Shown here: piece after piece, positions 9,685 through 47,643 of the stretch | Layout of the letters: each line of letters opens with the position of its first letter | Numbering within the stretch: the first letter of the stretch is position 1 | Assembly: GCA_964413195.1 (NCBI GenBank) | Contig: CAYPRD010000002.1 | Location: forward strand, 1 to 54,870 | DNA from: an uncultured Candidatus Peribacteria bacterium | GTDB taxonomy: Bacteria; Patescibacteriota; Gracilibacteria; BD1-5; JAGOOR01 | Length of the DNA stretch: 54,870 nucleotides | Reading direction: 5' to 3' | Position numbers and translations under genes: made by a program | The notes under the pieces: model-generated | Seen by the model: only the letters and a program-made list of their open reading frames with translations | Told to the model about the DNA's origin: nothing | Database searches by the model: none

Positions 9685-13362
<3,678 letters not shown>

Positions 13363-18103: not shown

Positions 18104-19162
18104 CTAGAATTCAATTTTTTCTATAGATTGCCCAATACTCTCAAGAATTTCATCTTTTTCTCTTCCGTGTGCTAAACGGGGTTGTCCATATCATTCTATG
18201 ATGATAGGAATCAATTCTAATCATGCTAGTTGGGGTTTTACAGCATGCTTTATGCTGACGCGTACGATCAATCCTTGTTTTGTCTCTGGGCTGAACTCTT
18301 GATCAAAGACAAAATTTCACAGAGAATAGAAAATATATTTTCCCCGATAAACTTCCACCGGTTGTATCCAGTGAGGATGTGCTCCCAGAACAAGATCTGC
18401 CCCGTGATCAATAGCAGTGCGAGCAAAAGTTTTTTGGAGAGCGGTCGGGTGTCGTGAATATTCTTGTCCGGCATGCATATTGACGACAACGATGTCTGCT
18501 TGTTTTTTTGCTTCTTCGAGAGAGAGTATCAAATTTTGCGTATCCTGCATTCGAGCAATCTGCTCATGTGTGCCCGTCCCGTCATCATTATAGGCTGCAT
18601 ATGAAGCTCAGAGAAAAGCTATTTTTATTCATCGTACTTCCTGAATCTGCGGTTTCCATGGATCATCACCGACCCCAACAGGTTTTATACCTATTTTTGT
18701 AAGGAGATCTTGTGTTGTCTGTAGTCATGCTTCCCCTTGATCGAGAGCGTGATTATTGGCGAGACTTACGAGACGAAAATTAACGGTAGTAAGCGACTCT
18801 ATGAGGTGAGGAAGAGCATTAAATACGAGAGTTTTTTGATAGGAATATATCGGTGTTCCATTGGTGGGGGATTCGAGATTGCCAAAAACAAAATCAGCAC
18901 TTTTTAGAAGAGAACCAATCTTCTCCCAAATCCATGTTGGTCATCCTCACTTTTCTGCATACCGAGCCACATTTCTGGAGAGCATAATGTCACCAGTTGC
19001 TATGAAAACTACTGATGATGCTGGAGCTGGTGGAGGTGAATCTGATGCTGAGAGAGGGGGACTGAGAAAGGCATATATAAGTGTTGCGCTCACGAGAAAA
19101 GATACCAGCATTAGGCTCACGGCAAAAAATAAACGAATGTTGCATATGTGCATAGCTCTCAT
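18104..19162 (-). CDS. capA: CapA/PGA_cap-type metallophosphatase (poly-gamma-glutamate capsule synthesis family)
   Basis: Track fragments 18947..19162 and 18317..18550 lie in one frame of 353 codons with 8 TGA and no TAA/TAG (checked triplet by triplet). FIATGDIML, GNLESP, ANNHALDQGE, VNMHAGQEY, GAHPHWIQP, SL(TGA)NFVFDQ. Confidence 0.85.
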
Positions 19163-19213
19163 GCTATTGAACTTCTCTTAAGTGCAATAGACTTTCAAAA
19201 TATAGCAAGATTC

Positions 19214-19846
19214 TTATTGAATGGCAACAACCACCCGCAAGAAGCGCTTGGCGTTCTGCGGGGGCTTTTTGTAGTCGGTCAGGCGGTAAAAGGCATCAGC
19301 ACCGATTTGCTGGACTTCGATCAGCTCCACTCCCGGCATGGAGGGCGTGAGGACAATCAAGCCGTTGCTCGTCTTGACGGTGCCGAGGTCTTCCCACTGC
19401 TGCAGGTCGTCTGTGCCTTGAAAGGTGATCTTCAGGGCGGGATCGGTTGGAATCGTGGGGATGCGCAAAAAGAGGTTCTGCGGTGGAAGTCCGGGGTCTT
19501 GAATCTGGCCTGTCTCCACAGGCCCCGTGATGCCGGCGTATTCGGCAAGGTTCTTCGTGCCGTCGCCATCGGCGTCTTGGTCGGGATTGCGGAGAGGATT
19601 GGTGGCTCCGTAGGTGGCCAAAGCCCATGCATCGTAGAGCTGCAAGGCATCGGGTCTGGTCACTCTCACTTCCACAAGGTTCCCTACTCTATCTGGTTGG
19701 TAGGCGACACGGCCACGAGAACCGTAGTCCACTGCCACAAGACGCCCATCGGTGTCATAGGAGTAGTCGGCGGTGATGCTCACCGGGTCAGCAATGGCAG
19801 AGGCTGCACCGAGCAGGAGAGCGCTACAGGTCGAGATCGGGTTCAT
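19214..19846 (-). CDS. secreted YD-repeat / Ca-binding-motif protein (island ORF 3)
   Basis: Signal-peptide-like MNPISTCSALLLGAASAIA, one YD repeat (YSYDTDGRLVAVDY) and a DQDADGDG motif. TAA stop. High GC. Confidence 0.6.
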   Translation of the reverse strand: MNPISTCSALLLGAASAIADPVSITADYSYDTDGRLVAVDYGSRGRVAYQPDRVGNLVEVRVTRPDALQLYDAWALATYGATNPLRNPDQDADGDGTKNLAEYAGITGPVETGQIQDPGLPPQNLFLRIPTIPTDPALKITFQGTDDLQQWEDLGTVKTSNGLIVLTPSMPGVELIEVQQIGADAFYRLTDYKKPPQNAKRFLRVVVAIQ

Positions 19847-20276
19847 GGCGATGATTGCGTTTAATGGTGCGGAAATCTTCTGGATACGTCTTTCGCCGCC
19901 ATGATTGGAATTCTTCCGTTATCACGGGATCTTCGTCGGCTATTTCGCAGGTAAAACCCTCCCGCATCATTATTCGAGGCATGATTCTCACTTCTTCGGC
20001 AGAAATCATTTGAAGCTCTACATCTCTCGGAAATTCCGGTTCCACAATTTCAAATAGGCTCGCAGGGAATGCCGTGATCCAGCGGACTGGCACCTCAATT
20101 TCAAAGTGCAGACACCGTTTCCCGGTTTCCGCTTCTTCAAATGAAAGCCCAAGCACCCGATACTGCTCCCCGACTTCCAAAAGGTCTGCCGATGGAATCC
20201 CCCGATGTTGTTGGATTTCAGGAGTTCTCTTTATGTAGCACTCAGGATCGTTGATGGCTATACACTTAACGATCAT
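19824..20276 (-). CDS. putative immunity protein for the upstream Rhs C-terminal toxin
   Basis: ATG begins immediately after the toxin TAA (stop 20279..20281, ATG 20276..20274). 150 aa acidic protein. Called from its position, which is typical of Rhs toxin-immunity pairs. No family recognised. Confidence 0.5.
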   Translation of the reverse strand: MIVKCIAINDPECYIKRTPEIQQHRGIPSADLLEVGEQYRVLGLSFEEAETGKRCLHFEIEVPVRWITAFPASLFEIVEPEFPRDVELQMISAEEVRIMPRIMMREGFTCEIADEDPVITEEFQSWRRKTYPEDFRTIKRNHRHEPDLDL

Positions 20277-20278
20277 AT

Positions 20279-21268
20279 TTACTTGGGTTTTGGTTCATAA
20301 ATTTTACCTGTGGCATCGTTTCTATAAGCGTGAATTTGAATTTTTGACCCGTCCATCAACGTCTCGTGCCGGGAAGTAATCTTCTGCCAATCATTCGGTC
20401 GCCCCCCGTAAGTTTTTACAAGACGATTAATGTCATTTATTTTCTTCTTAACTCCTTTCCCTGCCATCACTCTATATTCGTTGGAGTATATTTTTTGCAG
20501 GAGTCGTTTTCCTGCCTCTATCCGCTGAGTGGTTACTACCCTCCCCACCTTGTTCAGACCAGCCGGAACGCCGGGAATAAATACGGAGAGGACATCGGAA
20601 CCGATGTCCTTCGCATCCTGCTTGAAGGTCTGCTTGTCCCACTTTCCGGTTCTGATGGCGGCAGCGGTATGTCCGATAAGCTGTCCGGTGTCCCAGAGCG
20701 TCACTCCAGCATCCCAGATGATATCGATGACATTGCCACTGGGATCAACGTAGGTCAGGGGATTCCCCCTCGCATACGCATAGCGGTTGAAGGTGGAAGG
20801 GTCTTGCAGGGTGCCTGTGACGGCATCTTGTGAGAGGAAGGCATGGGTGCGGGTGCAGTAGTGGCGTGCTCTCATCGAGAGCAGGCCTGACCCGTCATCC
20901 ATGACGCCCCATTCACCGCCGTGGCGGTAAGGATTGTAAAGAGCAAGACCGGAACCGCTGATGGAATCAGCCGTCAGTCCAAAAGGATCGTAGCCAAAGG
21001 CTTGTGTCGTAGTCTCGTCGGCTTGTGTCAGTGCCAGCGTGTTGCCGTGGGGATCGAAGTGAAACACTTCGTCGTTTAGGTATGAACCATCAGTATTGAA
21101 ACGGGCCAACAGGCCGAGTCCCCAGACGTAGTAGGCAGTGACCGCACCGGTATCCGTCATCTGTGCTAAAGCACAGGGCAGCGGTCTATTGTCATCGACA
21201 ACGTATCGCTGAACAGTGGAGCCGAGCTGACGTTCGAGACGAACGCCATCACCATTGTAGCGGAAAAT
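20279..21268 (-). CDS. 5'-truncated Rhs core plus C-terminal polymorphic toxin domain (orphan Rhs-CT)
   Basis: FRYNGDGVRLERQ, YYVWGLGLLARF, FHFDPHGNTLAL, FGYDPFGL, ARHYCTRTHAFLSQDAV..NRYAYARGNPLTYVDPSGN (Rhs core end), then about 165 aa of non-Rhs tail. Rhs similarity starts abruptly at the GC/AT junction. Confidence 0.8.
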   Translation of the reverse strand: MFRYNGDGVRLERQLGSTVQRYVVDDNRPLPCALAQMTDTGAVTAYYVWGLGLLARFNTDGSYLNDEVFHFDPHGNTLALTQADETTTQAFGYDPFGLTADSISGSGLALYNPYRHGGEWGVMDDGSGLLSMRARHYCTRTHAFLSQDAVTGTLQDPSTFNRYAYARGNPLTYVDPSGNVIDIIWDAGVTLWDTGQLIGHTAAAIRTGKWDKQTFKQDAKDIGSDVLSVFIPGVPAGLNKVGRVVTTQRIEAGKRLLQKIYSNEYRVMAGKGVKKKINDINRLVKTYGGRPNDWQKITSRHETLMDGSKIQIHAYRNDATGKIYEPKPK

Positions 21269-21302
21269 TTTATGAAGTAAAGTTTTCAGTCTTTTGTTTT
21301 AG

Positions 21303-21343
21303 TTTTTTTGAAAAATCTACCAATAGTAGATTTTTCAAAAAAA
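21303..21343. repeat. perfect 18-bp inverted repeat (hairpin) 35 nt outside the island's right edge
   Basis: TTTTTTTGAAAAATCTAC-caata-GTAGATTTTTCAAAAAAA. The arms are exact reverse complements. Confidence 0.85.
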
Positions 21344-21403
21344 CTCTATAGATATTTCCATATTACTGTCAATTCGTCTTCTGTGATTGTTGGGCGCGAT
21401 CTC

Positions 21404-21432
21404 TTGCCCGATTATGCTTTTTTTCATATACT
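21404..21432 (+). promoter_or_regulatory. promoter with -10 placed 6 nt before the ATG (leaderless-type)
   Basis: TTGCCC, 17 nt spacer, TATACT, then gagtgt-ATG(21439). Confidence 0.5.
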
Positions 21433-21438
21433 GAGTGT

Positions 21439-22599
21439 ATGAAAGCATTTTTCTCCCTTCAAACCAAGCAGTTTGTTTTGTATATTGTCATCATCATTGC
21501 GACTCTGCTGGGCCTCTGGTTGGTCTATCTTCTCCGAGATGTTTTGAGCCTTGTCCTCTTATCTTGTTTTGCCGCGCTTCTTCTTTCTCCCTTTGTGAGT
21601 CGACTCAATACATGGAAGATTCCTCAAATCCCTGCTATTTTGACCACTTTTCTTGGACTTCTTGTTATACTTAGTTTATTTGTTGTCTCTATTATCCCTA
21701 TCTTTGTTCGTCTGGCAGAAGATTCCAAGGGCTATGTGCTGCGTTCAATTGATTTTATTGAAGCACAGGCTCAGGATGAGTTTCCTGTTCTCGATAAACT
21801 CCCTTTTCATGCTGGATCTATGATACGAAAGGGTATCGATATTCCTGAACTCACCGCAATTGTTCTGGACAAAAATCGTGTCCAACTGGTAACAGAAAAC
21901 ATCACTAACAATATTGATACCCTCAAGAACTTTGCCCAGAATGGTATCGGTCAAGTAGGGAGTATCGGTGTTTCTTTTGCGAGCGGGTTGACTTCTTTTA
22001 TTACGCTCTTTTCTCTCTTTCTGCTGTTAACATTTTTTATTCTCTTAGAGCGTCGAGCATTCCTGAAATGGTTCTTTGCTATTCTCCCGCATCAACTTGG
22101 ACATTATTTTAAAAGTCGCGAACATACTATTGGTGAAGCAATCCATGCTTGGCTTCGGGGACAGCTTATTTTGGCTACTTTTATGTTCGCTATTAACTTT
22201 ATCGGTTTAGCCATTGCACAATTTTTTGGGCTTCCAGTCACCAATATTTTCTCCCTCGCACTGATTGCATGAGCGATGGAGTTTGTTCCCTATGTTGGTC
22301 CTGTTATTGCTTTTATTCCAACATTTTTGATGGTATTGGTAAGTCCAGACGTGAGTATGTGGTCCATCGCTGCTGTGATTGGTCTCTATGTCCTCTTTCA
22401 ACAATTAGAAGGCAATATTATGGTTCCCCTTATCATGAGCCGTACGTTGCGTCTCTCCTCGCTCTATATTTTGATTGTGACGCTGATAGGAGCAACGCTC
22501 GGAGGTCCTCTTGGTGTTCTTCTTGCTATCCCATTGGCATCGATTATCCATATCTTTTATCACGATTGGATGCATTATCGAAAAACTCTCGAACAGTAG
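21439..22599 (+). CDS. AI-2E family transporter (PerM/UPF0118)
   Basis: Track ORFs 21439..22272 and 22276..22599 are joined by one TGA. LALIA(TGA)AMEFVPYVGPVIAFIP and QQLEGNIMVPLIMS. Multi-TM. Confidence 0.88.
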
Positions 22600-31015: not shown

Positions 31016-32062
31016 TTATTCAAAGAGAGTATTGTCATTCTTTTTGACCCAATCGAGGGATTTTCCTTTTCACCAAAAGGACCATAAGAGGATGTCCGTA
31101 AATGTGTATGAGCCAGCACGGAGGTCGTCGAGAGGATTCATAGCAAGCTCGAAATGCAAATGATAGAGGTATTTCTTATCAGGTACAGCAGAGTCTCCTA
31201 CGCGACCGATGATATCGCCACGTTTTACCCATTGACCCTTCTCGAGTTCGGATGGGATATCAGAAAGGTGCGCATAGATGGCTACGTGCCCAGAAAGTGT
31301 TTTGAGATAGACAGTATTTCCTCGGTATACATCCAGATTTTCTTGTTCTTCGAGATCGGAATCTCCAGGGTGGAGGTGGTTCATTTCTTCCCACGAGAAG
31401 TCACGTTTAGTATGTATAATCATACCATCTTCTATAGCGTGAACGAGAGTGCCTTCTTGGACATAAAAATCCCATCCATGATGGACTCCGTCTGTTTTCT
31501 GCGCTCGAAATGGACGAGGAGCGTTTGGTAAGTGAGAATTATTATTTGGAAGAGGAATTCCTGGTATGGGGAGAGAAAATTTTACTTTCCTGGTTTCCAA
31601 AATCAGAGAAATATCTGAAAAGAATCGTCGCATACGAGCCGAAGAAAATCGGTAGTCCGTAAAGAAGACAGATCATGCGCGAAGGGTGTTTGTCAGTGTC
31701 TCTGTTGAAACATCGCTGAGGGATTCGCGCGATGGGTATGATCATTGAAGAGGTAGAATATAGTTCTTTCCCTTGTACGTGACAAGAGGAAGTGGACAAG
31801 TGGTCACCGGCTTCCACTGAATAACTCGTGTCGTAGGCTCTTCTTTCAGTGTTGTTTGTTCATTTTCACAGGGAGAGATCAGTTTTTCTCCAGGATCCAC
31901 GCTCACAAGTACTGATGAGCTATTATCGAGGTGTGTTATGCCCGAAAAAAGAATCTCAAGACCGCTCCTACTAGCACTATTACTCACTTCAGGGGGTTCT
32001 GAAATAAGAATGGCTGGAGTACACAGCAGAAATGTTGCAACGAAAAAATGGGAACGAATCAT
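31016..32062 (-). CDS. secreted M23/LytM family metallopeptidase
   Basis: Track ORFs 31742..32062 (signal peptide) and 31070..31633 are one frame joined by TGA. HHGWDF (HxxxD) and YHLHFE (HxH). TAA at 31016. Confidence 0.85.
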
Positions 32063-32231
32063 AGATTTTGTCTCTTGTAACTCTCTTTGAGTGTATAAAA
32101 AAATTGATCAAATCAAACAAAAAACACATAGTATTTCTTGATTATCCGTTCTTTCGCGTACAAAACATTCTCTGTGAAGAATACGTGAAGGGTATTTCTT
32201 TTCTTTTCCCCTCGATTATAGTACTTTCACT

Positions 32232-33896
32232 ATGAAATATCTTCTTTTCTTTTTTGCCAGCGTAGGGATAGCATTTGTATGAGCAACGAGCCCCTTGGAT
32301 GCCGCTCGAGACTTGGCACAACAGGGGATCATCATCAATCAGTCTTCCTCTTTCGCGGGCAATTCTTCTTCACAAGAATCTTCTCTCTACCGTCTCAATG
32401 ATTTTCTCTCTCGACAAGAAGCGCTCGGTATTGCACTCAAGCTGCTATGAGCGAATCTGGATAACAGATATACTTGTCGTGGATACTTTGCGGATACGTC
32501 AGAATGGTGGGTGTGTCGGGCTTCTGAAATTGCTGCTGATTATGGTCTGGTGACACGCGCGAATAGACATTTTCGTCCCCGAGACACTTTGACACTGGCT
32601 GAATCCCTGGGAATACTTTTTCGGACCCTCGATATTCCTTTGTCTCAGACATCAACTCGTACTCTTGCGGGAAATGTGCCGGATTGGCAAAAGCGCATTA
32701 TTCTTACCATCAATGAACAATCTACTAATACGAGATTCTTTCGGGCCAAATTTGTACGTTCGTTAATTTTTCCTCCAGCCCTATGATGATATGAATTGGA
32801 TCTTTCGAATTTTGTTTTTGACGAATACTCAGATGGGTACTATAGCATTGGTCTTCAACAAAAATTAACTCGTGGTCAATTTTTTCAGATTGTTCTCTTA
32901 CTGACTCATTGATCCAATTCTCTCTGTTCCTCATATCGTTATTCTACCTGTCCCGCATCGTGCCAACCAGTTTGTCGCCCAAGTTCTTGTACGCCTGATG
33001 GGATTTGTACTGCTGATTGCGGATGAGCAGGAAGTTGTCAGGAAAAAACTGATGATGTACTTCTTCATTGTACGTCCTACAATGATGGATGTAATGATTG
33101 TGTCCGGATCAACGGTGTTGCTGCGTGTACAAAACGTGCTTGTTTTGTCCAATGAACTCCATCCTGCAGTGTTTGTGAGGAGGGATATACGCTCCTTTCT
33201 TGACGATGTGTGCAAAAAGAAACTACGTGTGTTGCCGAGGGATGATATGCAGGAGGTGGATATGTTCCTCATCAGGAAGATATAAATTCTTTTCAATGTT
33301 GTTCCAGCCTTGTTCGTGCTGATCGTAAAGATGGGAACATGATTGCCGATGGTGGTGCTATTTGTATCCGTCAGGGCGATGGATTCTGTGATGCTCGCTA
33401 TGAAAGCGCCTATAATTCTTCTGATTGCCGTCCTGCTTTTGACCTGACTGTTTGTGCATCGTATTATGATTGATGTAATACCTGTTCACGAACATCTTCT
33501 GGTCAATCTGTATGTACTTTGCGTGCCTGTATGACCCCGTGAATTCCATATTGCACGAGTTATATTCCTTATACTCCGCGAAATCAAAACCAAGACCGAG
33601 CCTTTCTGGATAAAATTGATACAGAAATTCAGGCGTACCTTGCTGATGTTTCGTGTCTGGATACGAGTGACTGTAAATATGCTTCTATGGGAGATCGCCC
33701 TTGCAACATATCGAGTGCTATGATACCGTATTCAACCAGAAATGTAGATAGCGTCCTCCTGAATCAAAAAACATTGTTTTATACTGACGCAGAAAAACTC
33801 TATAATACGACCTACAACATTGTAGGACCGTGTATATATCTATCACCACCTCGTGATCTACGTTGTATCAATCGCACGTGTAGTGCAAATTATTAA
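32232..33896 (+). CDS. secreted Cys-rich protein with an SLH-like N-terminal region and repeated CxSYxDGCNxC modules
   Basis: 555-codon frame with 11 TGA and no TAA/TAG (checked). Signal peptide MKYLLFFFASVGIAF. Repeats HCTSYNDGCNDCVRINGVAACTKRAC and VCASYYD(TGA)CNTCSRTSSGQSVCTLRAC. Confidence 0.75.
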
Positions 33897-43717: not shown

Positions 43718-44335
43718 ATGAGACCTCTTGATGGACGTCAACGTGATATCTTGGAATTTTTAACACAGAACCAAGAATATTCACTCACATTAGCAGATAT
43801 CGGTGCTGCTGTTGGCATTGATCATCCACAGAAGGTTCTGGATAAGATCGATCAGCTCCTTCGCATGTGATATATCGCTAAGAGTCCGTTTGGGGGATAT
43901 CAAGTCCTCAAACATTTTGAGGAGACAGACCAGCTCTCGATCCCTTTTTATGGATTTGCACAGTGCGGACATGCGGGACCAACTATCCTAGAGGAATACC
44001 CTAGAAAAAAACTTGAAATCGATAAGGATCTTATTGTCTCTGCTGAGAAAGATACATATTTTGTGACCCGAGCAAAAGGGGATTCGATGGAACCGTTTAT
44101 TCACTCAGGAGATTTTCTGTTAATCAAGGTACAAAAAGGTTTTCATTCCGAAGACCAGGTCATGGTGGTGCACAATGGAGTTCCAAAAATCAAAAAAGTT
44201 CTGCAAGATGGAGAGAAACTCGTGCTTCGTTCTTTTAACCGTGAATTCGGAGATTTTGTTGTGGAGATGGATGATGAAGCCCAGGTAATTGGCGTTGTCA
44301 GGAAACGTTTCCCAAAAGATGCTTTTATTGTCTAA
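43718..44335 (+). CDS. lexA: LexA-type repressor (wHTH plus S24 peptidase)
   Basis: Track ORFs 43613..43870 and 44063..44335 are one frame joined by one TGA. CGHAGPT (Ala-Gly cleavage site), KGDSMEP (catalytic Ser), PKIKKV (Lys). Confidence 0.88.
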
Positions 44336-47300
44336 GTCGGGGTATCTTCTGCGAGTTGAATTTCACTTCACACCTTCTTGATCCTATATTTTCCTCCCTT
44401 TACTCATCGATTTCTTGAGATAGATACCATGTATTGGGCTATACTTGCATCAATAGCTCTGTTAATTTCACGAAGGTTAAAGAAATCAGCACTTAATGGA
44501 GGTTTTGTTCCTTGTCAAAAACCTCTTATTACATTATCTGAGGCATTGTGTGTTCTGCAGACACTTTCACATATTCAGTAAATAAAATCAACAACGTCAT
44601 CATCGATACCTGTTATTTCGATCTCAAAATTTATCATCATTGGTCTCATTCCAATGAGCATTAAATTTTGTCGTACTGCCCTTCTAAATTCTTCTTTTGA
44701 GACTCATAGCATAGGGAGTATGTTAAATCGATTTGCAAATTCTGGCTTTTTAACTCATTTATCATCTTGGAATGCTTCGGCGATACAATCAACTATTTGA
44801 CTTTTATCCATACCGGCATGGAGCTTTTCTGCTCCTGCGTTTGTTGCAGCTATGATAATATATCTTTTTCTTTGGAATGTCTTCCCTACACCAGAGGTCA
44901 TTTTCCCTTCATCTACAAAATTCATAATTGCCATGCGAACTTCAGGGTGCATCTTATCGAGCTCATCTATAAAAACTATCCCTAGTTCATTATCTCTCAT
45001 GAAATTTGTTAAGGTGCCTCATTCATTTGAATTAACGTATCCGGGAGGAGATCATGTAAGGCGTGCTACAGAATGTGCTTCCTTATACATCGAGCCATCA
45101 AGAGTGAGTAGGGGAATATTAAAGTGCTTATGTAATACCTCGGCCATCCATGTCTTTCCGACTCACGTAGGTCATGGGAAGAGAAATGACAATGGTCTGT
45201 CAGGATTAGATCAACCAAGGATATGAGATTCAACTCGAGCACAAAATGTATTGATAACATGGGCTTGTCATACAATATGTTCATTGAGTATTCCTGGTAG
45301 AGCTTGTAAGCTTTTCTGTAATCCTTCCATTTGTTGCGTATTGGTCATGTCAAGAAATGTAGACACGGCAAAACCAAGATCTTCTCAATTAATCTCTCTT
45401 CTTCCACATGCATGACTATTAATAGCACAGGCTTGAATAATGCGAATACTGAGATGAAGTGGATCAGTTCCAGGATTCCGCATTCGAGCGACAATAGAAA
45501 CAATTCTCATAATGATTGTCTCTGGTATTATAACTCACAAAGATGTACTCATTTCATCTCTACAGTTGCATAATCTTGACCGTATTTCTTGATCAGAAAA
45601 AGCTGATATTTGTACCAGATTTTCTACCCCTGGGATGCTTTGAGGTCCAGAAATAACTATTTTTAGTCCTAATCTTCCCACGATTTCGAGAAATTCTCCA
45701 ATTTTTTGTGCGTCAACATATTGAGTTGGTAATCGTAAGACTATGACGGTGTCAGGGTTATAGTTTGCTATTGCAAGAAGGCCTTCATGGATTTTTGTTA
45801 TATCATCTATAATTGTTCCTGGATCTCATCACTGCAGAAGAGATAATAACGCCTTCCATCAGTTTTTTTCTTCTATTCCAATTTCCACTACTGAGTGATT
45901 CTTGAGAGAGTCCGGAACACTACCTGCCATTATCCTTTGCGTTAAACGTCCAAAGAGTCTTTCTGGAATAGCATCATAATCTCATCACCCACTGTTGTAT
46001 CTTGTGGTGTCTACTACTAGTACACTTCATGTTTCCCCGAGTCCTTGGATCATGCTATCCACTTCTGGATCCAGTCAAAGATCTTCCGATTCAGGCTTCA
46101 TAGCTACTGCATGAGTGCTTTTAACACTTGTTGCCGGGGCTTGAAGATTATCCATAAAAATTTGTGGCTCGTAATTCTGTTGGACGAGTTGATATCTTTC
46201 AAAAAGAGATGCGTTTATATGAAATCGTCTTATGCATAGCTGAACAAGAAAAGGAGGTATTTCTCTTATTCAATTTTTACTACATATCTCCAGTATTTGG
46301 ATCATAGCTTCTTCTGTTATTTCTTCAGTTTTTTCTAATATAAAATAGAGTATATCTAAGAGGTTTCTTTTTTCTTTCCAGCGACCATCATGCTCCATTG
46401 TCTCGACTACATGTCGTAAGTTCTGTACGCCAACGACTTTTACCCCTTTAGTACGAAGAATTTCATATATAAATCTATTTTGACTCATACTTTCTCTTTT
46501 CTTGGAATCAATTCACATAGCTTCTTCCATAAATCTTGGTGTTTGGCTTCATAAAAATTGTACTTGCCTCAATCAGTCATAATCATTTTCAAATGCTCAC
46601 TCTCCAAAATATATCATTGGCTGTGCCTCTAGTCTTGTCCCAAAAGACTGATCCATATGATTGCAAGATCGAGTCTTTAATATTTTACATATAGTTGCAA
46701 AAGATTCTTTTGACCCTCTTTCTGCTGAAAATGTATATACGACTTTTCTACTTCCAGAAGATTTTTTACCAGGAATTCATAGACCTCTAATCTGTTCTTC
46801 TAATGTTTTTTTTGTTGTATTGCCTGAATTTCTAAATGGTTTTTTTGCCATAGAGGGGTGGCCAACTCATGTTAATATATATCGTAATGACAAAAAGAGT
46901 AGATCTTCTGCAGAATTGTCGTAACCTTCAAAATCGAGATCTCCTACAATATCCAGAGGTACAAATTCATATTCTTTTTGATGTGCTCAAGAACTAATTT
47001 CTCCATATCTTTCTAATCATAATCGAATCAATTCATGGAGTCATTTCCCAGATACAGATGTTCCATTTCTACAATCTATGGCGACTTTATTTGTGGTTCT
47101 TCTGGAAAATGCGTTATGGATTGTATGGAGGCCAAGCATGAAAGGCCTAATTGCATTGATTGCCGGAATTTGTCTACGAACAGGGAGGGTACCAATATAT
47201 CTACCGACAGCACCTTTTCAATTAAAATCCGGTATTCCTAATAGATCGGAGAGATTGTCATCTTTTCTAAGTATCCGCCTATCGATGACATGTCAGAGCA

Positions 47301-47643
47301 CTGTTCATTTTACTCTTAACAAAAGATTATTTAATTCGTGTCCTGAGATTTCCCCTTCTTTTTTTTCATCTAAAATATTTCTATCCTCTTCACTTTTTCT
47401 ATTCCGTTCGTATCTTGCCATACGTCGTCATAGTACTGTTAGATTAAGCAATGCTCACGTTTTTCTTATTAATCACAGTGATTCACATTCGCGGATGGCA
47501 TCTTCATCTTGTGCATGGGAACTTTCGCCTTTCTTCTCCAGGAGAGCGATTAAAAGATTTTTTATTGTTTCCGCTGTTTTCCCGGCTTCCTGTAACTCAG
47601 AGGTATTTATGGAACTCGTTTGTTGAGATTCTAGGGGGGGCAT
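44332..47643 (-). CDS. 1103-aa ClpA/B-like AAA+ protein: unknown N-terminal region, degenerate D1, intact D2
   Basis: One frame from ATG 47643 to TAG 44332. All 56 sequence lines were split into triplets and no TAA/TAG was found. About 37 in-frame TGA. D2 has GQAHVI..FLFPGPTGVGKT..GSPPGYV..IVFIDELDKMHP..IIIAATNAG. D1-like region has no GKT. Confidence 0.85.

Follow-up and report, generated by a model that had tools for sequence, protein, structure and literature searches.

Does the GC-rich block that separates capA from its divergent AI-2E transporter gene represent DNA received from another bacterium, a relic of the lineage's own past, or an artefact of assembly? We analyzed this island in the context of the window, meaning the whole 54.9-kb stretch of DNA under study. 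The evidence makes it very probable that the island is a real import, namely a contiguous slice of ~2.05 kb from the Rhs locus of a GC-richer bacterium that reads TGA as stop, now residing in a code-25 genome. The features of the locus are as follows, each with the evidence on which it was assigned:

18104 to 19162, minus strand: host capA-like gene (PGA_cap; PF09587 at 2.7e-69), with 8 in-frame TGA codons
19163 to 19213: native left remnant of the divergent capA/AI-2E intergenic region (comparison with relatives)
19200 to 19230: left junction, at or a few nt from the ORF1 stop codon at 19214-19216 (composition step, Logan contig L001)
19214 to 19846, minus strand: ORF1, complete secreted YD-repeat protein of 210 aa (PF05593, family alignment)
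19824 to 20276, minus strand: ORF2, putative cognate immunity protein of 150 aa (homologues adjoin homologous toxin domains)
20279 to 20731, minus strand: ORF3, linker and C-terminal toxin domain of the Rhs fragment, ~150 residues (homologous tails)
20732 to 21265, minus strand: ORF3, 5′-truncated Rhs core remnant, last ~178 residues (TIGR03696 and BLASTP)
21266 to 21272: right junction, where Rhs homology and high G+C stop (composition step, Logan contig L002)
21269 to 21438: native right remnant of the capA/AI-2E intergenic region (comparison with relatives)
21439 to 22599, plus strand: host AI-2E family transporter gene (PF01594 at 2e-44), with 1 in-frame TGA codon

Composition, genetic code and boundaries

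An earlier note on this DNA, made from its letters, described a sharply bounded high-GC island in an AT-rich genome. The island itself was borne out by a sliding-window check, which revealed a discontinuity at both edges. Positions 19214-21268 have a G+C content of 53.4%, whereas all other 2055-nt segments average 40.7% (sd 1.6, maximum 44.1), placing the island at z = 8. At 30-nt resolution both edges are sharp, with G+C rising from 0.30 to 0.60 over ~19214-19244 on the left and falling from 0.50 to 0.23 at 21268 on the right. The description of the genome was overstated, since a background of 41% G+C is only mildly AT-rich. Profiles of tetranucleotides and codon usage, which the note had proposed, also mark the island as an outlier. 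Its tetranucleotide distance from the remaining window is 0.040 (reference, 0.0166 ± 0.0019), and its genes have a GC3 of 0.48-0.69 vs. 0.32 in domain-verified host genes. Within the island, G+C is uneven, reaching 58-60% at 19200-19900 and 20500-21200 and dipping to 40-47% at 20200-20500, where the tail of the toxin gives way to the beginning of the immunity gene. This dip reflects the usual lower G+C of a toxin/immunity cassette.

Assignment of the host to code 25 was verified by in-frame TGA codons at universally conserved glycines of RpoB (NPL[TGA]V, GGQRF[TGA]EME, KITPK[TGA]E), RpoC (IF[TGA]P, EGKAI, FHSG[TGA]) and S3 (M[TGA]HK). The closest capA loci belong to MAGs labelled Gracilibacteria or Peribacteria, in which capA orthologues show 52-62% identity. 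As the earlier note had claimed, the three island ORFs (19214-19846, 19824-20276, and 20279-21160, the last one open back to 21298) all lie on the minus strand, lack in-frame TGA and end in TAA, TAG, and TAA, respectively. Not one of the 41 TGA trinucleotides on the island's coding strand is in frame. Since host genes carry 5.4-9.6 TGA per 1000 codons (this rate and the host GC3 were computed from domain-verified genes only), 3.5-6.2 would be expected in the 653 island codons, and the probability of finding none is 0.03 to 0.002. Being free of TGA and terminated by TAA or TAG, all three ORFs are decodable unchanged in the recipient. By comparison, TGA is the stop codon of 9 of the 13 genes in donor-type, GC-rich Rhs loci.

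The site of the island was compared among relatives of the host. The AI-2E gene keeps its synteny with capA, and its divergent orientation, in L004, L005, L007, L009, L028, and L030-L032. In four distinct relatives (five loci: L007, L009, L030, and L031/L032) the site is empty, with gaps of 145-176 nt, and in every relative found it is either empty or holds an unrelated gene of native G+C. Neither island proteins nor Rhs homologues were found at the capA/AI-2E loci of relatives, and no other Rhs homology was found within the window. Scans of genome and metagenome contigs with capA gave no host relative above 62% identity, and exact look-ups of table-11 fragments of capA and AI-2E, aimed at the empty-site allele of other runs, returned nothing on record. 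The left edge of the island lies 51 nt from the capA start, as previously noted (capA ATG at 19162), and the two native remnants sum to 221 nt, compared with the 145-176 nt of relatives that share the gene order. Past the right junction, the open frame of ORF3 continues into unrelated AT-rich host sequence. Promoter-like sites numbered 6 vs. 2.4 ± 1.7 in shuffles, all being consensus matches; one of them, TTGCCA-17-TATATT on the minus strand at 19227-19199, spans the left junction and is likewise a match to consensus only. The right remnant harbors a single-copy, 45-nt perfect palindrome (21301-21345; predicted to fold at -24 kcal/mol, z = -7.5) and, 7-8 nt before the AI-2E ATG, a promoter-like TATACT box that is conserved in L007 and L009.

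Gene content of the island

ORF3 is the end of an rhs gene. The Rhs_assc_core model TIGR03696 matches its residues 103-188 with 57.7 bits (cut-off, 32.5), and BLASTP aligns it with Rhs proteins P0002, P0003, and P0004 at 30-42% identity (E 1e-38 to 1e-40); the YD/RHS repeat model PF05593 scores 18.6 bits, under its 22-bit cut-off. Homology begins at residue 12 of the open frame (FRYNGDG, nt ~21265), which upholds the earlier observation that the right edge cuts an Rhs ORF where G+C rises. The core ends with NPLTYVDPSGN, a motif of the PxxxxDPxGL type with a final N replacing L, and its P180, D185, P186, and G188 are invariant among 8 homologues. The core remnant has a G+C content of 56.4% and a GC3 of 0.60, and the toxin part has a G+C content of 47.9%. 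With ~180 core residues vs. 1440-1787 aa in full Rhs proteins, ORF3 is devoid of the N-terminal trafficking region and of a full YD shell. Because these parts are absent, we infer that the fragment cannot act as a delivered toxin.

The conserved toxin module occupies roughly the last 65 aa of ORF3 and follows the pattern AGKG..(13-14 aa)..YGG.P.DW.K..(~17 aa)..IH.Y.N..TG..EPK. Homologous C-terminal domains are carried by other polymorphic-toxin scaffolds (P0011 and P0002), form the tail of a full Rhs protein in L024, and occur as a 126-aa orphan in L019 (33% identity, E 1.7e-8). The domain matched no Pfam or NCBIfam family and nothing in a PDB sequence search. Its AlphaFold model is modest, reaching a pLDDT of 74-81 for aa 56-112 only and being reliable for the last ~55 residues, and Foldseek found no fold match for it in the PDB.

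The start codon of ORF2 lies 2 nt past the toxin stop codon. ORF2 is an intact gene whose product can be aligned over its whole length with homologues P0037, P0100, and P0033 at 26-33% identity. In L019/L020 the orphan homologue of the toxin domain is followed after 9 nt by the gene for P0037, and in L024 an Rhs gene whose toxin domain is also homologous is followed after 13 nt by that for P0100, so that toxin and ORF2 families adjoin each other at both places. Since this type of toxin is trailed by the ORF2 family in two unrelated Rhs loci, both of them GC-rich, ORF2 is likely the toxin's putative immunity protein. It had no significant match in Pfam, NCBIfam, or a PDB sequence search, and Foldseek found no PDB match for its AlphaFold model (pLDDT 74.5).

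ORF1 overlaps the putative immunity gene by 23 nt. It contains a signal peptide, one RHS repeat (PF05593 at 22.8 bits vs. a cut-off of 22), a calcium-type motif (DxDGDG), and a beta-rich domain with RFLRVVV at its end. With a G+C content of 58.8% and a GC3 of 0.69, it is richer in G+C than any other part of the island without being an Rhs core. End-to-end alignment with 18 proteins of 179-209 aa, in which its C-terminus coincides with that of the family, indicates that ORF1 is complete and was not truncated. The homologue P0043 is encoded 24-75 nt upstream of a DUF6531-Rhs gene of 1440-1457 aa in L021, L022, and L023.

Origin and possible function

Horizontal transfer from a GC-richer donor that does not use TGA as a sense codon, as envisaged in the earlier note, is supported by the verified code of the host, the TGA-free genes, and the empty sites of relatives. 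A further line of support is that the gene families of the island occur in Rhs loci on contigs of 53-62% G+C with TGA as stop. When 5.8 billion proteins were searched for a donor, the highest identity for ORF3 was 42%, and the only matches of ORF1 and ORF2 were to themselves; a full HMMER search of 1.84 billion representatives yielded only remote families at 26-44% identity. The database search that had been expected to name the donor lineage therefore gave no pointer to host or prey, the best matches being 30-42% identical. We infer that the transfer was recent, since composition has not ameliorated and TGA codons have not arisen. With homologues this distant and no donor sequence found, it is from composition that both the recency and the donor lineage are read.

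The source of the DNA would be a tandem Rhs polymorphic-toxin locus, and the target would be the short divergent intergenic region between capA and AI-2E. On the minus strand, the donor fragment would comprise the 3′ end of an rhs gene (core end and variable toxin), its cognate immunity gene, and the YD-repeat 'leader' of the next rhs gene, with one end inside the rhs core and the other at or just past the stop codon of the leader gene. Relative to a classical integrase-mediated genomic island, the locus has the deviant composition and is without the integrase or transposase, the tRNA target, and the direct repeats. No integrase or transposase is encoded by the three island ORFs, no tRNA gene was found in the window, Rfam gave no match, no terminal direct or inverted repeats or target duplication were found at the island, and the island showed no similarity to plasmid and phage DNA. 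The absence of an integrase, tRNA gene, terminal repeat, and target duplication suggests that DNA taken up from a neighboring or host cell may have been inserted by illegitimate recombination of the end-joining type. Import of host DNA via ComEC and type IV pili has been proposed for CPR bacteria (PMC8080830). A gene for a PilB-type ATPase is present in the window.

Two other accounts of the island's origin were weighed against import. The earlier note had left room for an assembly chimera, in which 2 kb from the contig of a GC-rich organism would have been misspliced into a Gracilibacteria-type contig. The sharp composition steps, the interruption of a gene at one edge, and the absence of mobility signatures would all fit such an error. 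However, both junctions are crossed at 100% identity by per-run Logan contigs, from two runs and a different assembler. L001 (run SRR8893623) covers 18491-20211 of the window and crosses the left junction, and L002 (run SRR8893624) covers 20037-21414 and crosses the right one, where it includes 146 nt only of the AT-rich flank and ends before the AI-2E gene. Although the two contigs may share part of their read sets with the window's own assembly, a chimera would require two misjoins, and yet capA/AI-2E synteny is perfect and the 221-nt flanks are near the native 145-176 nt. Moreover, a second contig with the same ORF1 or ORF3 protein is absent from the record. We give misassembly scarcely any credence. 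Alternatively, the island could be a remnant of the lineage's own former rhs locus, its G+C being an intrinsic property of cores rather than a trace of recent transfer. Rhs cores are GC-richer than their genomes and the tips are lower in G+C, as in the rhs elements of E. coli, and the island is likewise high in G+C at its core and low at its tip. Against this stand the most GC-rich part of the island, which is the non-Rhs ORF1, and the state of the site in all relatives found, with no Rhs homologues nearby. Long residence under code 25 should also have added TGA glycine codons and lowered GC3, whereas TGA is absent and GC3 reaches 0.69. A native origin thus appears very unlikely, and recent import remains the preferred reading.

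What the imported DNA does for its recipient is a separate matter. At our best guess, most of the insert is passenger DNA. If any part is of use, it is plausibly the acquired immunity gene alone, which could protect against an Rhs toxin of the donor lineage. It is possible, if doubtful, that the insert is kept as a functional defence because the immunity gene protects an epibiont or predator from such a toxin. The immunity ORF is intact and aligns along its full length with its family, and there are precedents for orphan immunity genes that protect against non-self effectors (PMC10539506; bioRxiv 10.1101/471110). The island ORFs are co-oriented with capA and lie downstream of a native promoter-like site, and given this orientation transcription from the native right flank could run through into capA. 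All three stop codons are TAA or TAG, as opposed to the prevalence of TGA in GC-rich loci, which would fit selection for termination under code 25; this pattern, however, comprises three genes, with P about 0.04 at a TGA share of 0.65. The insert also holds one immunity gene rather than an array, occurs in one lineage only, and looks very recent. A more elaborate version seems improbable, in which an epibiotic or predatory CPR bacterium with code 25 took up DNA of its host or prey, and the island, as a record of this uptake, was kept for its immunity gene and owes its TAA/TAG stops to a code-compatibility filter or to repair of TGA to TAA after transfer. Still less plausible is a selfish toxin-antidote addiction, in which an internal start codon (ATG at 21160) would give rise to the toxin domain, with loss of the insert made costly by the linked immunity gene. 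An ATG-initiated ORF of 293 aa does span the toxin domain and is followed almost at once by the immunity gene. On the other hand, ribosome-binding or promoter evidence was not found for it, and release of Rhs toxins normally requires a folded shell and autoproteolysis, with the shell missing here.

Significance and relation to known systems

Reassignment of UGA has been suggested to impede the exchange of genes in both directions. The present locus holds cleanly delimited standard-code genes, intact in a genome in which UGA encodes glycine, where they are readable unchanged only because they are TGA-free and end in TAA or TAG. The locus also defines an unannotated, putative Rhs toxin/immunity pair and a family of 'leader' YD-repeat proteins that precede rhs genes. 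If the donor were identified in the same samples, it could reveal the physical partner, host or prey, of a Gracilibacteria-type organism, and it would allow a direct test of stop-codon repair after transfer.

The island resembles the orphan Rhs toxin/immunity modules of Salmonella and E. coli, which likewise consist of a 3′ core fragment with a DPxG-type motif, a variable toxin, and a coupled immunity gene, and in which the toxin/immunity part is also lower in G+C than the core (PMC3967940). Classical orphans, however, immediately follow a full-length rhs gene of their own genome, with which they can recombine (PMC3967940), whereas no resident rhs gene was found here in the window or in relatives; the island occupies an intergenic region between housekeeping genes, in a genome that is phylogenetically remote and has a different genetic code. 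As in polymorphic toxin systems at large, one toxin module is shared by several scaffolds and is followed by the same family of small proteins (Zhang et al. 2012, PMC3482391). Unlike those systems, the toxin and immunity families of the island matched no Pfam model or solved fold. A horizontally acquired immunity gene in the absence of the cognate delivery system is also a property of acquired interbacterial defence (AID) clusters and orphan immunity genes (bioRxiv 10.1101/471110; PMC10539506). AID clusters, in contrast, group several immunity genes in arrays carried by recombinase-bearing mobile elements, and their protective effect has been demonstrated, whereas the island comprises one putative immunity gene and a toxin remnant and has no recombinase. 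A parallel in terms of genetic code is Vampirococcus lugosii, a code-25 relative in which UGA also encodes glycine and which gained genes from standard-code donors; it has 126 horizontally transferred genes, and DNA uptake via ComEC and pili was proposed (PMC8080830). The transfers in that species were deduced from phylogenies and are for the most part older, whereas the present island is physically delimited, un-ameliorated, and accompanied by empty-site comparators. The island is thus one more horizontal transfer event with a known type of cargo, and an unusually clean example of a known process rather than a new type of system.

The capA/AI-2E site and the probable insertion

The GC-rich island at 19214-21268 lies between divergently transcribed genes for a capA-like protein (PF09587) and an AI-2E transporter (PF01594), as the earlier note had read the flanks. 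That note also described an island of deviant composition with sharp bounds, and a sliding-window profile bears this out: G+C is 53.4% in the island against a mean of 40.7% (sd 1.6, maximum 44.1) in the remaining 2055-nt windows across 54.9 kb (z = 8), with edges that are sharp at 30-nt resolution. In tetranucleotide composition, the island stands at a distance of 0.040 from the remainder of the window (comparison value 0.0166 ± 0.0019). Calling the genome AT-rich was an overstatement, as the background G+C is 41%.

Such a stretch could be either a true insertion or an assembly chimera. Per-run Logan contigs, recovered by exact-protein look-ups, match the window at 100% identity across each junction: SRR8893623_199018 covers 18491-20211 and reaches across the left junction, including 723 nt on the capA side, and SRR8893624_351382 covers 20037-21414 and extends 146 nt past the right junction. 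The capA loci closest to that of the window (52-62% amino-acid identity) belong to MAGs labelled Gracilibacteria or Peribacteria, and no host relatives closer than 62% identity were found. The divergent gene pair is kept in these relatives, none of the island proteins was found in their capA/AI-2E loci, and the gap is only 145-176 nt in four distinct relatives (five loci: L007, L009, L030 and L031/L032). What remains of the flanks in the window, 51 + 170 = 221 nt, comes near this native gap size, and L007 and L009 share the AI-2E-proximal TATACT box. A chimera would require two misjoins that happened to restore synteny, and is very improbable. The Logan contigs, the relatives' loci and the residual flanks are three independent lines that argue for a real insertion, and horizontal acquisition is favored of the two readings offered in the earlier note.

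In three other relatives, the gap holds an unrelated Cys-rich gene of ~1.7 kb (L004 8279-10000, L005 8239-10000, L028 2639-4359) with native G+C. Since this gene is absent from the window, L007, L009 and L030-L032, the intergenic site is one at which the lineage has repeatedly gained or lost genes.

Gene content of the island

The three island genes are tightly packed on the minus strand, where ORF2 starts 2 nt after the ORF3 stop and overlaps ORF1 by 23 nt:

20279-21298, minus strand, ORF3 open frame, Rhs-associated core (TIGR03696, 57.7 bits)
19824-20276, minus strand, ORF2, putative immunity protein
19214-19846, minus strand, ORF1, secreted YD-repeat protein

Tails of Rhs proteins align with ORF3 from residue 12 (FRYNGDG) on. 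Because this homology starts exactly where G+C rises, the island edge cuts the gene short, as had been suspected of an Rhs ORF there. The core-end motif NPLTYVDPSGN is followed by a C-terminal region of ~150 residues, the last ~65 of which recur on other toxin scaffolds. Lacking the shell and N-terminus, the Rhs remnant cannot be a deliverable toxin.

A word-indexed search found no relatives of ORF2 (150 aa); a small family of 130-137-aa proteins emerged when 1.84 billion representatives were scanned in full with HMMER. At L019/L020 (61.6% G+C), a large Rhs gene and an IS110 transposase are followed by a 126-aa orphan ORF with homology to the toxin domain of ORF3 (33% identity, E 1.7e-8), and one family member is found 9 nt downstream of that orphan ORF. 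At L024 (60.8% G+C), 13 nt separate another from the upstream gene for a long Rhs protein, whose tail …ATYGGRARDWQKVTG…VQVHAYRNAATGRVVEP matches …KTYGGRPNDWQKITS…IQIHAYRNDATGKIYEP of ORF3. Comparative analyses normally recognize a toxin-immunity pair by adjacency that is conserved across independent loci, and the ORF3 toxin domain and ORF2 show such adjacency. Neither family matched any Pfam model or solved fold. ORF2, the putative immunity gene, is intact; in principle, it could confer protection against the toxin of the donor lineage. G+C within the island is uneven (58-60% at both ends, with a 40-47% dip at ~20200-20500), and by part it is 47.9% in the toxin region, 48.3% in ORF2, 56.4% in the ORF3 core and 58.8% in ORF1. 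Rhs cores typically have a higher G+C than toxin/immunity cassettes, and the dip is the toxin/immunity cassette.

ORF1 (210 aa) has a signal peptide, one RHS repeat (PF05593, 22.8 bits), a DxDGDG motif and a beta-rich C-terminus that ends RFLRVVVAIQ. That the gene is complete follows from its full-length alignment with 18 proteins of 179-209 aa ending RFYRVVV, a family in which the RHS repeat is the only part with a Pfam match. In three contigs (L021, L022, L023), a homologue lies 24-75 nt upstream of a DUF6531-Rhs gene encoding 1440-1457 aa. Taken together, the three genes give the island the look of a single cut from a tandem Rhs locus, which would run from the end of rhs(n) through its toxin and immunity gene to the leader gene of rhs(n+1). 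The family as a whole consists of secreted single-YD-repeat proteins of ~180-210 aa ending RFYRVVV, immediately upstream of large DUF6531-Rhs genes (in L021, 8001-8609 and 8684-13006; the same pairing occurs in L022 and L023). To our knowledge, this pairing has not been described.

Genetic code of the host and stop codons of the island

When TGA is read as stop, many genes across the window are broken; with TAA and TAG as the only stops, rpoB (7 TGA), rpoC (5 TGA), secY and ribosomal protein genes stay open. TGA falls on universally conserved glycines of RpoB (NPL-G-V, GGQRF-G-EME, KITPK-G-E), RpoC (IF-G-P, FHSG-G) and S3 (M-G-HK), so the host uses code 25. Codons 885-886 of rpoB (9685-13362) are TGA TGA at a conserved Gly-Gly (VR-GG-DILVGK), and this consecutive pair provides strong internal evidence for UGA=Gly. 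No other protein in the window comes close to using the reassigned codon as heavily as one of 1103 aa with a ClpB-like AAA_2 domain (44332-47643, minus strand): its 37 in-frame TGA codons make up 38% of its glycine codons vs. 16% window-wide, and its G+C is only 37%. A 652-aa Cys-rich predicted secreted protein without a Pfam match (31938-33896, plus strand) has 14.

The island departs from this usage. GC3 is 0.69 in ORF1, 0.60 in the ORF3 core, 0.53 in the ORF3 toxin region and 0.48 in ORF2, compared with 0.32 in eleven domain-verified host genes. The claim that the island ORFs lack in-frame TGA held, with none in 653 codons against 5.4-9.6 per 1000 codons in host genes (P = 0.03 to 0.002), and 41 out-of-frame TGA trinucleotides occur on the same coding strand. 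TGA is the stop in 9/13 homologous genes of the GC-rich comparison loci (L019 5612-6393; L024 3-2693; L021 8001-13006), indicating that organisms of this type read it as stop; among toxin-domain genes it is the stop in 5/5 (four large rhs genes and one orphan toxin-domain ORF). The island ORFs end in TAA, TAG and TAA, as first read, so that decoding and termination of all three would be identical in the recipient. With n = 3 genes, these stops could reflect chance, a compatibility filter or post-transfer repair. Homologue searches, the full HMMER scan and cluster look-ups identified no donor lineage; the value of the island would rise if the donor turned up in the same samples.

Probable route of entry and related systems

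No integrase or transposase, tRNA gene, terminal direct or inverted repeats or target duplication was found, nor any plasmid or phage similarity of the island, and one end cuts a gene. We infer from these features that a random fragment of imported DNA was probably inserted illegitimately. Code-25 relatives, which have many HGT-derived genes, have been proposed to import host DNA via ComEC and type IV pili (PMC8080830), and a PilB-type ATPase gene is present in the window. The three ORFs are co-oriented with capA, and promoter-like sites, as consensus matches only, occur at 21372-21343 within the native right flank, reading into the island, and at 19227-19199, straddling the left junction. A palindrome at 21301-21345, 33 nt right of the island edge, has perfect 20-nt arms (AGTTTTTTTGAAAAATCTAC-caata-GTAGATTTTTCAAAAAAACT), is single-copy in the window, has an RNA fold of -24 kcal/mol (z = -7.5) and overlaps the -10 hexamer of a minus-strand promoter-like site. 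It could be a candidate operator, or a cruciform-prone break site favoring insertion.

The closest known systems are orphan Rhs toxin/immunity modules (PMC3967940), from which the island differs in that no full-length rhs gene is seen to reside alongside it, and immunity genes of the orphan or acquired kind (PMC10539506; bioRxiv 10.1101/471110), from which it differs in having neither an immunity array nor a recombinase; it fails the defining context of both. Horizontal gene transfer into code-25 bacteria has already been documented (PMC8080830), and the island is a clean, physically delimited, un-ameliorated transfer.
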